Below the pieces are notes generated by a model, which was not told the origin of the DNA, searched no databases, and saw nothing but the letters and a program-made list of their open reading frames with translations. The position numbers and the translations under genes are program-made. This document shows positions 2,728 to 19,135 of a DNA stretch of 64,000 nt, in pieces. This stretch comes from Promethearchaeota archaeon (lineage in GTDB: Archaea; Asgardarchaeota; Lokiarchaeia; Sigyniarchaeales; SOKP01), in assembly GCA_048937405.1 (NCBI GenBank), contig JBHLNF010000014.1:18424-82423 (forward strand). Reading direction: 5' to 3'. Numbering within the stretch: position 1 is the first letter of the stretch; each line of letters opens with the position of its first letter.

Positions 2728-4206
2728 ATGAAATCTGTCTTAATTGCAAATCGTGGAGAGATTGCAGTAAGAGTTATTCGGACCTGCCGATCAAAAGATA
2801 TTCAATCAATAGCAGTATTTTCCGAGTCAGATAAAGATTCTCTTCATGTAAAAATGGCTGATGAGGCTTATTCATTAGGGAATGAATCGATTCAGAGCAC
2901 ATATTTGAATATTCCTAAATTAATTGAAATAATTGAAAGGTCAAAAGTAGATGCTGTCCATCCTGGTTATGGTTTTTTAAGTGAAAATGCCGATTTTGCT
3001 CGAGAAGTCATTAATCTTGGTAGAGATTTTATTGGACCAAATCCAGATACCATTGAATTCTTAGGAAATAAAATAAAAGCAAAAAAACGTGCTAAAAAAA
3101 TTGGTTTACCCGTTTTGGAAGGTTCTGAAGAATTTGTTGACAATTTAGACGAAGCCAAATCAGTTGCAGATGAAATAGGATATCCTGTAATAATTAAGGC
3201 AGCCTATGGTGGTGGTGGTAGAGGTATGGAAATTGTTGAATCACATGAAGATATGGAGATTGCATTTGAAAGCTGCCAATCAATGGGATTAAATTTTTTT
3301 GGACGGAAAGAAGTATTTATTGAAAAAACTATTACAGAACCGCGCCACGTAGAGATTCAATTTATGGGAGATAATTTTGGAAATGTTGTTCATTTAGGAG
3401 ATCGGGAGTGCACAATCCAAAGATCATATCAAAAACTAATTGAGGAAGCACCCTCATTTTTAACGAGAGATGAGGTTATTGAATTAGGAGAAAAAACATG
3501 TTTATTAGCTTCTGACTTAAATTATTCAAATATAGGAACCGCAGAATTTCTCTGGAAAGATGGTAATATTTATTTTAATGAAGTTAATCCAAGGATCCAA
3601 GTAGAGCATGTAGTTACAGAAATGGTAACTGGAATAGATATTATTGAAGAACAGATAAATATTGCTTCAAATAAACCATTAAATTTCACTCAGGAAGATA
3701 TTTCAATATATGGTCATGCAATAGAATATAGGATTAATGCTGAAGATCCACATAATTCATTTTTCCCTCAACATGGAAAAATATCCAATTTGATAATTCC
3801 AGGAGGTCCAAAAGTGCGTTTTGATAGCTACTTATATCCAAATTATATTGTTCCTTATGATTTTGATCCATTAATAGGAAAATTAGTCGTTTGGGGACGT
3901 AATCGTAAAAGAGCTATTAGTAGTTCTAAGCATGCTCTAAAAGAATTGGTTATCTCAGGAATTAAAACAAACTTGGAAATGCATAAAGTAATAGTGGAAA
4001 CAAGTGAGTTTAAAAAAGGGGATTTATCAACGGATTTCCTAAATAAAATAAATATTGTTTATAACTTGAAAGACTTAGAGAGAAAGAAATTAGCCGCCGT
4101 TTTTCAATTATTCAACACGTTTGATTTTGCACCCCAACCTGAAAAGGATAATGATAAAAACTCACATAAATGGCGAGATATTGCTAAAATTGAGCAAATG
4201 GGTTAA
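2728..4206 (+). CDS. accC: Biotin carboxylase subunit of acetyl/propionyl-CoA carboxylase
   Basis: VLIANRGEIA, HPGYGFLSEN, GGGGRGM, RECTIQR, EVNPRIQVEH motifs; ATG at 2728 preferred over TTG at 2716. Confidence 0.95.
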   Translation: MKSVLIANRGEIAVRVIRTCRSKDIQSIAVFSESDKDSLHVKMADEAYSLGNESIQSTYLNIPKLIEIIERSKVDAVHPGYGFLSENADFAREVINLGRDFIGPNPDTIEFLGNKIKAKKRAKKIGLPVLEGSEEFVDNLDEAKSVADEIGYPVIIKAAYGGGGRGMEIVESHEDMEIAFESCQSMGLNFFGRKEVFIEKTITEPRHVEIQFMGDNFGNVVHLGDRECTIQRSYQKLIEEAPSFLTRDEVIELGEKTCLLASDLNYSNIGTAEFLWKDGNIYFNEVNPRIQVEHVVTEMVTGIDIIEEQINIASNKPLNFTQEDISIYGHAIEYRINAEDPHNSFFPQHGKISNLIIPGGPKVRFDSYLYPNYIVPYDFDPLIGKLVVWGRNRKRAISSSKHALKELVISGIKTNLEMHKVIVETSEFKKGDLSTDFLNKINIVYNLKDLERKKLAAVFQLFNTFDFAPQPEKDNDKNSHKWRDIAKIEQMG

Positions 4207-4246
4207 ACATATCCAATAAATTTATTAAATAATAAGTTGATGTTTC

Positions 4247-4762
4247 TTATAAAACAGAAGTACTTTCTGTTATTTTTACTGAAGGTATATTCTCAATTTT
4301 AACTAGCTGTTGATCTTGACCTACTATATCCTCAACTTCTACGAAGATTTGGGTTATCTTGCCGTTAATTGGAGATAATATCCGATTTTTCATTTTCATT
4401 GCCTCTAAGATCATAATTAATTGATCTTTTTCAACAATTTCCTGTTCTTTAATAAGAATTTGCAGAATCTTCCCGGGAATAGGTGCTTTTATAATCACAT
4501 CTTTAGTCTCCTGATTTTGATTGTTATTTTCTACTGGCTTTAAGTAGGGTTTAATTTCAATATCGATTTCTTCTCCTTCTAAATATAAAGTTCCATTTAT
4601 ATATTCCAAATTGAATTGACAATCTGCAAATGACACTCGAAACAAATTTTCAGTTTCCTGAACTACTACAGGTGTATAAATGTGATCATCAACTTTTATT
4701 TTCCCATCATCCAAGGGTTTAACAATGTAAGTTCTACCCCGGAATTTTACTTTTTTTTTCAT
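4247..4762 (-). CDS. accB: Biotin carboxyl carrier protein
   Basis: APIPGKI and EAMKM biotinylation motif. Confidence 0.92.
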   Translation of the reverse strand: MKKKVKFRGRTYIVKPLDDGKIKVDDHIYTPVVVQETENLFRVSFADCQFNLEYINGTLYLEGEEIDIEIKPYLKPVENNNQNQETKDVIIKAPIPGKILQILIKEQEIVEKDQLIMILEAMKMKNRILSPINGKITQIFVEVEDIVGQDQQLVKIENIPSVKITESTSVL

Positions 4763-17697: not shown

Positions 17698-18376
17698 TTT
17701 AATCCATCCTTTCTTTATTTAAACGTATATTTTTTTGAATTTTTACTTAGATATGGATCGATTTAAATAAATAAAAGAAGAAGATTAATTTCTAATATAA
17801 ATATTATACCACAAAAAATACGATGATTGATATTATTCGATGAAGCTCATTAAAACATTCACTATTCTCCCCTTATGAAGTAAAAAATTTTTATTTTTTG
17901 GTTATTCATTTTTAAATAAAATTGATTATTAAAAAATTTATTTAATTTTAATAAAAAAATAATACAGCTCTTTTTAGCTTATTCTAAAGAATGGAAAGAA
18001 ATTGAACCATAATTCAATTGAATCGTCATTCATTCGACTTTACAATCATCGAAAAATCTCATATACTTTATAAGGGGCTATCATCAGAAGAAAATAAGAT
18101 TTTATCTTATGCTTAGTTATTATTTATCATAGATTAATCAAAATAAACTAATAAATAAGAATATGATAAATAAAAAGTAAAAGTATTAATTTTTTTTATT
18201 TATTCGGAATTAAATCATTTTTGTGAACGAAAACAATAAAAAACTCAATATTAATAGTGATTTAATTTTTTAATATATTTCCCTATAATTAGTCCTATCA
18301 AATTTATAAGTTTTTAAGTAGAATCTCTTTTTATCTATAATAGGATATAATAATTGTTGATAAATTCTGTTCTATA

Positions 18377-19135
18377 ATGCTTTCAAAAATTAAAATTATA
18401 CATATTAATAAAACCAGCTCTACCCAAGATGCAATACTTGAGTACTTTCGAAATGATTATCACCCCTCAATATTGCTGATTGCAAAAACCCAAACTAAAG
18501 GGCGTGGAAGACAAGAAAATGACTGGTTCTCACCAGAAGGTGGATTCTGGGGTACTTTAGGAATATCTAATTCATCATTATTAGAAAAATGGCAATTAGC
18601 TTTATTTCATTATTTTACAGCAACCTTGCTTGTAAGGGTAATTAAAGAAGAATATAAAATATTATTACAAATTAAATGGCCTAATGATATCTTATTTGAA
18701 AATAAAAAATTAGCAGGTATTTTAATAGATTATGTTGTTAGCGCTCAAAAAAATTATGTCCTAATTGGAATTGGCTTGAATTTAAACAATTCAAGGACCA
18801 CCATGCCAGAAGATTTAGAACCGATAACAATATCAATCAAAGATATATTGCATAAACCTGTATCTTTAGATAATTTTGCCCATAAGATTTGTAATTATGC
18901 TAATGAGTATTATTCTCCAATCATAGAAAATGATGACGAACAAATTAATTATTTAATCGAAGAATATAATCGATACTCACGAATTTATGGAAAAGAAGTT
19001 ATTCTTGATGATTCAAAGAAATACTACTGTTTTGGAATCAATAAAGAAGGATTAATGCAATTTTCAAATGAAAAAACTAAATTAAATTTATCAATTGATG
19101 ATTTAACAAGGATAAAAAAGATACTATCCATATAA
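18377..19135 (+). CDS. birA: Biotin-protein ligase (no N-terminal HTH)
   Basis: SSTQD, QTKGRGR, WFSPEGG, KWPNDI, KKLAGIL, GIGLN motifs. Confidence 0.92.
   Translation: MLSKIKIIHINKTSSTQDAILEYFRNDYHPSILLIAKTQTKGRGRQENDWFSPEGGFWGTLGISNSSLLEKWQLALFHYFTATLLVRVIKEEYKILLQIKWPNDILFENKKLAGILIDYVVSAQKNYVLIGIGLNLNNSRTTMPEDLEPITISIKDILHKPVSLDNFAHKICNYANEYYSPIIENDDEQINYLIEEYNRYSRIYGKEVILDDSKKYYCFGINKEGLMQFSNEKTKLNLSIDDLTRIKKILSI

Follow-up and report, generated by a model that had tools for sequence, protein, structure and literature searches.

Two of the closest described systems, Type R and Type S, come from the catalogue of secondary lipid synthases by Shulse & Allen (2011; PMC3098273), where Type R is reported from Koribacter, Solibacter, Elusimicrobium and Roseiflexus. 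Archaea are said to lack type I and type II fatty acid synthases (FAS I and FAS II), acyl carrier protein (ACP) synthase and, nearly always, ACP itself (10.1101/2024.07.05.601840). The other fatty-acid route proposed for archaea, the ACP-independent FAS complex of Sulfolobus acidocaldarius, is coenzyme A (CoA)-based, with thiolase/DUF35, SDR, MaoC and MDR components and without ACP, phosphopantetheinyl transferase (PPTase) or malonyl-CoA (10.1101/2024.07.05.601840). Here we describe a six-gene cluster at positions 2716-19135 of a 64,000-nucleotide stretch of DNA (the window: positions 18,424 to 82,423 of contig JBHLNF010000014.1, forward strand, assembly GCA_048937405.1) from a Promethearchaeota archaeon of the Lokiarchaeia. 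It is built around an iterative type I megasynthase and is probably, judging from its gene and domain content, a native and self-sufficient module by which a long acyl chain, reduced and largely saturated, is made de novo on carrier proteins. In the literature searched, the Asgard gene is touched on only in passing, in 2020, where a Heimdallarchaeota metagenome-assembled genome (MAG) is noted to contain a 'novel PKS cluster'; the synthase is not mentioned in Eme 2023, Wu 2022, Manoharan 2019 or a 2026 review.

Scanned by segments against Pfam and NCBIfam, the megasynthase reads ERa-ERb-KS1-AT-KS2-ACP x3-KR-DH-PPTase (ER, enoyl reductase; KS, ketosynthase; AT, malonyl transferase; KR, ketoreductase; DH, dehydratase; Table 1). 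As in Type R synthases, the core order KS-MAT-second KS-like-tandem ACPs-KR lies on one chain and a dedicated PPTase is present, which in Asgard is fused C-terminally and is the sole one in the window genome. One Type R member has an acetyl-CoA carboxylase (ACC) gene within its cluster (PMC3098273), Asgard KS1 sequences fall in a polytomy with those of Type R-bearing phyla, and an ACP motif carrying a threonine, DLGIDTVKQ, is common to both. The Asgard form differs from Type R in the fusion of the PPTase and of a polyketide synthase (PKS)-type DH and, in most groups, of a didomain made of a pseudo-ER and a FabK-type ER. Its second KS keeps the active-site Cys, whereas PMC3098273 called the Type R counterpart a chain-length factor (CLF), and a full carboxylase, BirA and a hydrolase accompany the gene.

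The single open reading frame (ORF) synthases of Desulfomonilaceae and Desulfobacterales (Desulfospira joergensenii, Desulfoluna butyratoxydans) share the order ERa-ERb-KS1-AT-KS2-ACPn-KR-DH, with domain identities of 31-50%. The PPTase is also fused in the Desulfomonilaceae synthase, as in Asgard, whereas that of the Desulfobacterales has an extra KS, 4-8 ACPs and no PPTase; in both groups the gene stands alone and falls outside the Asgard KS1 clade. The sequence-only reading had allowed that this architecture might already be characterised with a known product: bacteria do have synthases of the same general layout, but PMC3098273 records no product for Types R and S, and the further literature searched gave none. 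We would guess that these bacterial synthases are the 'Type S' of Desulfobacterium autotrophicum HRM2, proposed as the core FAS of that organism. In D. joergensenii (L138:8001-19748) the third KS lies between KS1 and AT, and a gene for a PlsC-type acyltransferase is found two genes upstream.

The likeness to PfaA that had been noticed in the KS, AT, tandem ACPs and KR is borne out, TIGR02813 (PfaA; cut-off 1010 bits) being the best-scoring model for these segments (451, 205, 123 and 153 bits, separate segments having been scanned rather than the whole protein). PfaABCD and the Asgard enzyme also have tandem ACPs and a KR insertion in common. Identity as a polyunsaturated fatty acid synthase was nevertheless rejected: there is no FabA-type DH/isomerase in the window genome (no PF07977 match), the DH being PKS-type; KS2 keeps its Cys, leaving no Cys-less CLF; the ER is FabK-like, with no match to the PfaD model; and all domains are on one chain. 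Cis-polyenes by the known route would be impossible for the megasynthase, since it has neither a FabA-type DH/isomerase nor a Cys-less CLF and its ER is FabK-like. ERb aligns over about 290 residues with solved FabK structures (PDB 2z6i, 7l00, 9pl0) and keeps the His of their EGxExGGH motif, differing from FabK in being fused to the megasynthase and preceded by a degenerate, His-less copy. The order of the fungal/CMN type I FAS (AT-ER-DH-MPT / ACP-KR-KS-PPT) is different, and the FMN-type ER and terminal PPTase are the only analogous parts.

The catalytic machinery is intact. About 110 full-length homologues were aligned (60-82 Asgard and 23-38 bacterial-type sequences), and throughout them the Cys/His/His/Lys of KS1, the Ser and His of AT, the Cys and first His of KS2, the His of ERb, the Ser/Tyr/Asn of KR and the His and Gln of DH are invariant. 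The second His and the Lys of KS2 have one exception each, and the acid residue of DH is Glu in every Asgard copy and Asp in most bacterial ones. When aligned to FabF, KS2 of the window keeps its Cys, both His and the Lys, and for this reason it is predicted to be a real ketosynthase rather than a CLF. At the catalytic position of ERa, homologues never have His (R, K, I or M are found instead). The KR, DH and ER named in the sequence-only reading are thus all there; what it overlooked is a doubling of the FabK-like domain at the N-terminus, the first copy being without the catalytic His.

Table 1. Genes of the cluster and domains of the megasynthase, with window coordinates and megasynthase residue numbers (res).
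Feature	Position	Strand	Residues and motifs	Matches and remarks
accC, biotin carboxylase subunit	2716..4206	+		Pfam Biotin_carb_N/CPSase_L_D2/Biotin_carb_C; NCBIfam acetyl-CoA carboxylase BC, 598 bits; single copy
accB, biotin carboxyl carrier protein	4247..4762	-	EAMKM biotinylation motif	Pfam Biotin_lipoyl; single copy
Alpha/beta hydrolase (S33/Hydrolase_4 type), candidate chain-release thioesterase	4793..5578	-		Pfam Hydrolase_4
Iterative type I megasynthase	5575..16113	-	3,512-aa ORF (3,512 codons); probable ATG start at 16104, giving 3,509 aa	Pfam, NCBIfam on segments
PPTase, two-lobed Sfp-type	5599..6234	-	res 3294-3500	genome's only one
DH, PKS-type dehydratase	6304..7146	-	res 2990-3270; His3015, Glu3181, Gln3185	invariant in Asgard copies
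KR, PfaA-like ketoreductase with insertion	7339..8436	-	res 2560-2925; Ser2875/Tyr2888/Asn2892	invariant
Three tandem ACPs	8749..9576	-	res 2180-2455; LGIDTV in each; Thr2215, Thr2307, Thr2410	Thr at phosphopantetheine site
KS2, divergent FabF-like ketosynthase	9739..11196	-	res 1640-2125; Cys1860/His2008/His2048/Lys2043	intact
AT, FabD-like malonyl transferase	11539..12471	-	res 1215-1525; GHSLG Ser1318, xAFH His1424	TIGR00128 fabD, 245 bits, just under cut-off
KS1, PfaA-like ketosynthase	12694..13956	-	res 720-1140; Cys934/His1068/His1107/Lys1102	invariant
ERb, FabK-type FMN enoyl reductase	13999..15111	-	res 335-705; EGSECGGH motif, His486	His486 invariant
ERa, degenerate FabK/NMO-like domain	15124..16113	-	res 1-330; catalytic His replaced by Ile	weak match
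Carboxyltransferase subunit (PccB/MmdA/12S type), first gene of the operon	16126..17697	-		Pfam Carboxyl_trans 6.7e-181; NCBIfam; single copy
birA, biotin-protein ligase	18377..19135	+		Pfam BPL_LplA_LipB; TIGR00121, 129 bits, above cut-off; single copy

All six genes were found, from their ORFs and Pfam matches, where the sequence-only reading had placed them. On the minus strand the operon runs carboxyltransferase, megasynthase, hydrolase, accB, with accC convergent and birA divergent; the start of the hydrolase overlaps the megasynthase stop by 4 nt, or lies 8 nt downstream of it if the next ATG is used. The locus thereby encodes a complete acyl-CoA carboxylase (biotin carboxylase, biotin carboxyl carrier protein and 12S carboxyltransferase subunits), with the biotinyl-Lys motif and the ligase. 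Aligned with solved esterases, the hydrolase keeps its Ser (GESFGG), Asp and His; it adjoins the megasynthase in seven relatives (those with enough DNA) and in two Heimdallarchaeum genomes, while birA adjoins the cluster in 7 of 8 relatives' loci.

That the gene set is self-contained, as had been proposed, is confirmed by a profile search of the genome, which is estimated to be 100% complete. The three ACPs are its only PF00550 matches and the fused PPTase its only PF01648 match, no paralogue of accC, accB, the carboxyltransferase, birA or the hydrolase is found elsewhere in it, and it has no FabA/FabZ (PF07977) and no PlsX match; its sole ACP, PPTase, carboxylase and BirA genes all lie in the cluster. 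These parts are also inherited together. In the family of the window genome (n = 134) the carboxyltransferase is present, on the contig of the megasynthase, in 12/12 genomes bearing the latter and in 0/122 others, a perfect co-occurrence which implies that carboxylase and synthase were gained or lost as one unit. The carboxylase genes are inside the cluster in all four Asgard sequence groups. The bacterial relatives have the synthase gene without carboxylase, BirA or hydrolase neighbours, presumably because a housekeeping carboxylase is already there.

From these parts a pathway can be proposed. BirA would biotinylate AccB, and AccC, AccB and the 12S-type carboxyltransferase would together supply malonyl-CoA. 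The fused Sfp-type PPTase would prime the three ACPs, apparently on Thr, and AT would load malonyl units, which KS1 (PfaA-like) and KS2 (FabF-like), both catalytically intact, would condense iteratively; the two could split the labour, one priming and the other elongating, or each serving different chain lengths. Full reduction of each beta-keto group would fall to KR, the PKS-type DH and the FabK-type ERb, with ERa as a non-catalytic partner, perhaps mimicking a FabK homodimer, and the coupled alpha/beta hydrolase would release the chain, in the simplest case yielding a free fatty acid.

Several points weigh against such a pathway, and the carriers themselves provide the first of them, a trait overlooked in the sequence-only reading. 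The phosphopantetheine site is Thr in all three ACP repeats, where it aligns with the Ser of PigH, AcpM and FAS II ACPs, and none of the three has the Ser that starts helix II in canonical ACPs. No precedent for Thr-linked phosphopantetheine was found in the literature searched. The cluster could on these grounds be inactive, or its carriers dead, which we consider very unlikely in view of the rest of the family. Thr occupies the site in nearly all ACP repeats (several hundred) of 120 archaeal and bacterial homologues, only a handful having Ser, and is embedded in a motif, DLGIDTVKQ(A/V)E, that is strictly conserved family-wide. The same motif occurs in the cultured Chloroflexota isolate Thermanaerothrix daxensis GNS-1 and in MAGs of Elusimicrobia, Austwickia (Actinomycetota) and Thermoplasmatota. 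Every other active site is invariant, and the 10.5-kb megasynthase ORF is unbroken in dozens of species at 45-78% identity. Such strong conservation of the Thr suggests that its hydroxyl is a functional acceptor on which the PPTase of the family itself acts, and we infer that the carrier Thr accepts phosphopantetheine. It constitutes a biochemical puzzle apart from the lipid question, one that is approachable in cultured T. daxensis.

The second point concerns the extender unit. The best-scoring match of the carboxyltransferase is the methylmalonyl-CoA decarboxylase/PccB family, and the family model does not separate acetyl-CoA from propionyl-CoA. The carboxylase genes might then serve propionate or central metabolism and be incidental neighbours of the synthase. 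This seems extremely improbable given the 12/12 versus 0/122 co-occurrence with the megasynthase and the inclusion of the carboxylase genes in the cluster in all four Asgard groups; the AT, moreover, is FabD-like with an xAFH motif, which suggests malonyl units.

The remaining points concern the product and its use. No product is recorded for Type R/S synthases in PMC3098273, and none was found in the further literature searched. A genome-wide profile search gave no PlsX, DegV or Dak2 match in the window genome, and three cluster-bearing genomes of one genus (g2) have no PlsY. Loki lineages can do without the cluster, as is often the case for accessory or secondary metabolism. For a cultured Loki archaeon, which may or may not carry the cluster, the one lipid analysis made (Imachi 2020, as cited in PMC13400652) is reported to have shown archaeal lipids alone. 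It could therefore be supposed that the product is not an ordinary fatty acid destined for bulk lipids but a specialised secondary lipid or polyketide, for example a hydroxylated or partly unsaturated long chain, a precursor of a diol or hydrocarbon, or a signalling or storage lipid. Those members of the Pfa-like 'secondary lipid synthase' radiation that have been characterised do produce specialised lipids (PMC3098273), and the synthase falls within this radiation; its ACPs are in tandem, it contains a second KS, its spread within Loki families is patchy and accessory-like, and there is no known acyl donor route to PlsY in the window genome, PlsX, DegV and Dak2 being absent. We nonetheless hold a specialised product to be rather unlikely. 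KR, DH and ER are all intact and invariant, and the ER is either fused or replaced by an adjacent FabI. The megasynthase scan found no FabA-type isomerase, methyltransferase, cyclase or reductive release domain, and the near-universality of the synthase in Heimdall-type families, alongside PlsY, DegV and Dak2, looks like core metabolism.

The cluster is native to its host. The source genome (4.47 Mb in 29 contigs, with 5.7% estimated contamination) carries it on an 82-kb contig that also codes for a Ras-family GTPase, a class I aminoacyl-tRNA synthetase and many PAS histidine kinases, and close homologues carry the NCBI names Promethearchaeota or Lokiarchaeota. In a scheme of genome kinship the source genome shares its phylum with Ca. 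Heimdallarchaeum aukensis. GC content at third codon positions (GC3) is 0.16-0.24 in the cluster genes, as against 0.18-0.21 in those for the leucyl-tRNA synthetase, a histidine kinase and the Ras GTPase, and 0.45 in katG. In tetranucleotide distance to the genome the cluster lies at the 82nd percentile of random 16-kb windows, whereas katG, at the 100th, is an outlier. Synteny of the entire cluster extends to eight related species from two families (50-78% protein identity), among them one with a closed 4.36-Mb genome, and in those relatives too it is flanked by homologues of host genes (M3 peptidase, radical SAM, PAS kinase). Closed Asgard chromosomes have the cluster as well, that of Ca. 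Heimdallarchaeum aukensis (CP084166) among them, and a sequencing run from an independent study contains 79% of the sampled words of the stretch. The host-like composition (unlike that of katG) and the long residence suggested by the sequence-only reading both withstood these comparisons, the latter with the added support of synteny and of a single Asgard clade. Bacterial contamination or a chimeric assembly join could be suspected from the fragmented assembly, its estimated contamination and the fact that the nearest non-Asgard relatives are bacterial. A join is excluded by the host-like GC3 and tetranucleotide composition together with the synteny in relatives and closed genomes; with the Ras GTPase and tRNA synthetase on the same contig, the single Asgard clade and the independent run, the probability of either kind of artefact is negligible.

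When 399 Asgard species genomes were searched with a KS1-AT query, the synthase was found in 68 of them. It is near-universal (53/59) in the Heimdall-type families, namely the Heimdallarchaeaceae (f13; 27/31) and the families designated f15 (11/12), f18 (12/12), f14 (2/3) and f12 (1/1). It is present in 11/133 genomes of the window genome's own family and 3/14 of a second Loki family (f2), and was not found by this query in the remaining Asgard families. Asgard sequences form one clade in the KS1 trees (SH-aLRT 96 and 92), placed in a polytomy amid Elusimicrobiota, Chloroflexota/Actinomycetota/Acidobacteriota and Myxococcota/Desulfomonilaceae clades, with Desulfobacterales outside; within it, the Loki group is sister to that of the Heimdallarchaeaceae (support 100). 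This pattern would fit a single ancient gain from bacteria, after which the synthase was passed down vertically in Heimdall-type lineages and, in Loki, was lost or exchanged among Asgard archaea. The direction assigned to the transfer is provisional, as the trees are quick ones rooted on long modular-PKS branches, with the 2011 Type R sequences themselves left out.

One family departs from the common architecture. The f15 synthase is without the fused ER didomain, and genes for a FabI-type enoyl reductase and a FabH-like KAS III flank its cluster (in genome G095, L032:3925-4761 and L032:18398-19348, both on the minus strand). The FabI looks like a non-orthologous replacement of the fused ER, and enoyl reduction would therefore seem to be required. 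In Ca. Heimdallarchaeum aukensis the megasynthase is read as two frames (1,506 aa and about 2,700 aa), and at L027:3574-7518 the hydrolase and accB are tandemly duplicated, along with a 184-aa fragment of the megasynthase C-terminus.

As for the fate of the chain, the window genome has two tandem PlsY-like genes beside a TFIIB gene, as well as a PlsC-PlsC fusion, and the product may be built into ester lipids by these proteins. A fatty-acid kinase (Fak; Dak2/DegV) or PlsX route to acyl-phosphate was rejected for this genome, no matches having been found. The PlsY-like genes are at L022:847-2058 and L022:2254-3276, both on the minus strand, and the long form of 402-425 aa recurs across the family. 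In the longer protein (403 aa) there is an extra C-terminal membrane half, which has no Pfam match and for which a protein atlas gives a weak, sub-threshold lead to CdsA/CTP_transf_1 (phosphatidate cytidylyltransferase). In the Heimdall-type families PlsY is found in 59/59 genomes, DegV in 59/59 (up to 23 copies) and Dak2 in 55/59, and in four f18 genomes matches to all three lie on one strand, about 2.5 kb or less apart (G122:C6:63849-66403, G121:C106:10103-12633, G128:C192:6823-9353 and G129:C88:3084-5640), in groups that resemble a cassette of fatty-acid kinase and PlsY. In two Heimdallarchaeum genomes the immediate neighbour of birA is a PlsY gene. Together with FabI/FabH, the PlsY/DegV/Dak2 patterns favour a fatty-acid reading of the synthase family, with the proviso that the genomes showing them are kin and so not independent. 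DegV genes are greatly expanded, to 9-23 per genome in f18 and mostly 9-18 in Heimdallarchaeaceae.

Archaea are presented in textbooks as lacking FAS I, FAS II, ACP and ACP synthase. The 'lipid divide' debate in eukaryogenesis has so far had scattered PlsY/PlsC homologues to draw on and no acyl-chain source. The present cluster is a concrete, clonable candidate for that source, native, monophyletic in Asgard and near-universal in Heimdall-type families, in which genes for fatty-acid activation and glycerol-phosphate acylation co-occur with it, and with such a candidate the lipid question becomes directly testable. Taken further, and as a tentative proposal that is more doubtful than probable, Asgard archaea might make fatty acids on Thr-linked phosphopantetheine carriers and build them into ester-linked glycerolipids, near-universally in Heimdall-type and optionally in Loki-type lineages, by way of a Dak2/DegV kinase and PlsY in the former and of PlsY-like and PlsC-PlsC proteins in the window genome. 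If true, the archaeal lineage nearest to eukaryotes already owned a fatty-acyl lipid pathway, and a whole widespread synthase family uses an undescribed carrier chemistry.

Some minor features of the window may be recorded. The intergenic region between the carboxyltransferase operon and birA (17698-18376) measures 679 bp, compared with about 415 bp in two relatives. The Ras-family small GTPase (28731-29924, plus strand) has an N-terminal extension of about 165 residues without a family match. The catalase-peroxidase gene katG (44722-46911, minus strand), with a GC content of 0.48 and a GC3 of 0.45 in a genome of 0.29 and with an outlying tetranucleotide composition, looks like a recent foreign acquisition.

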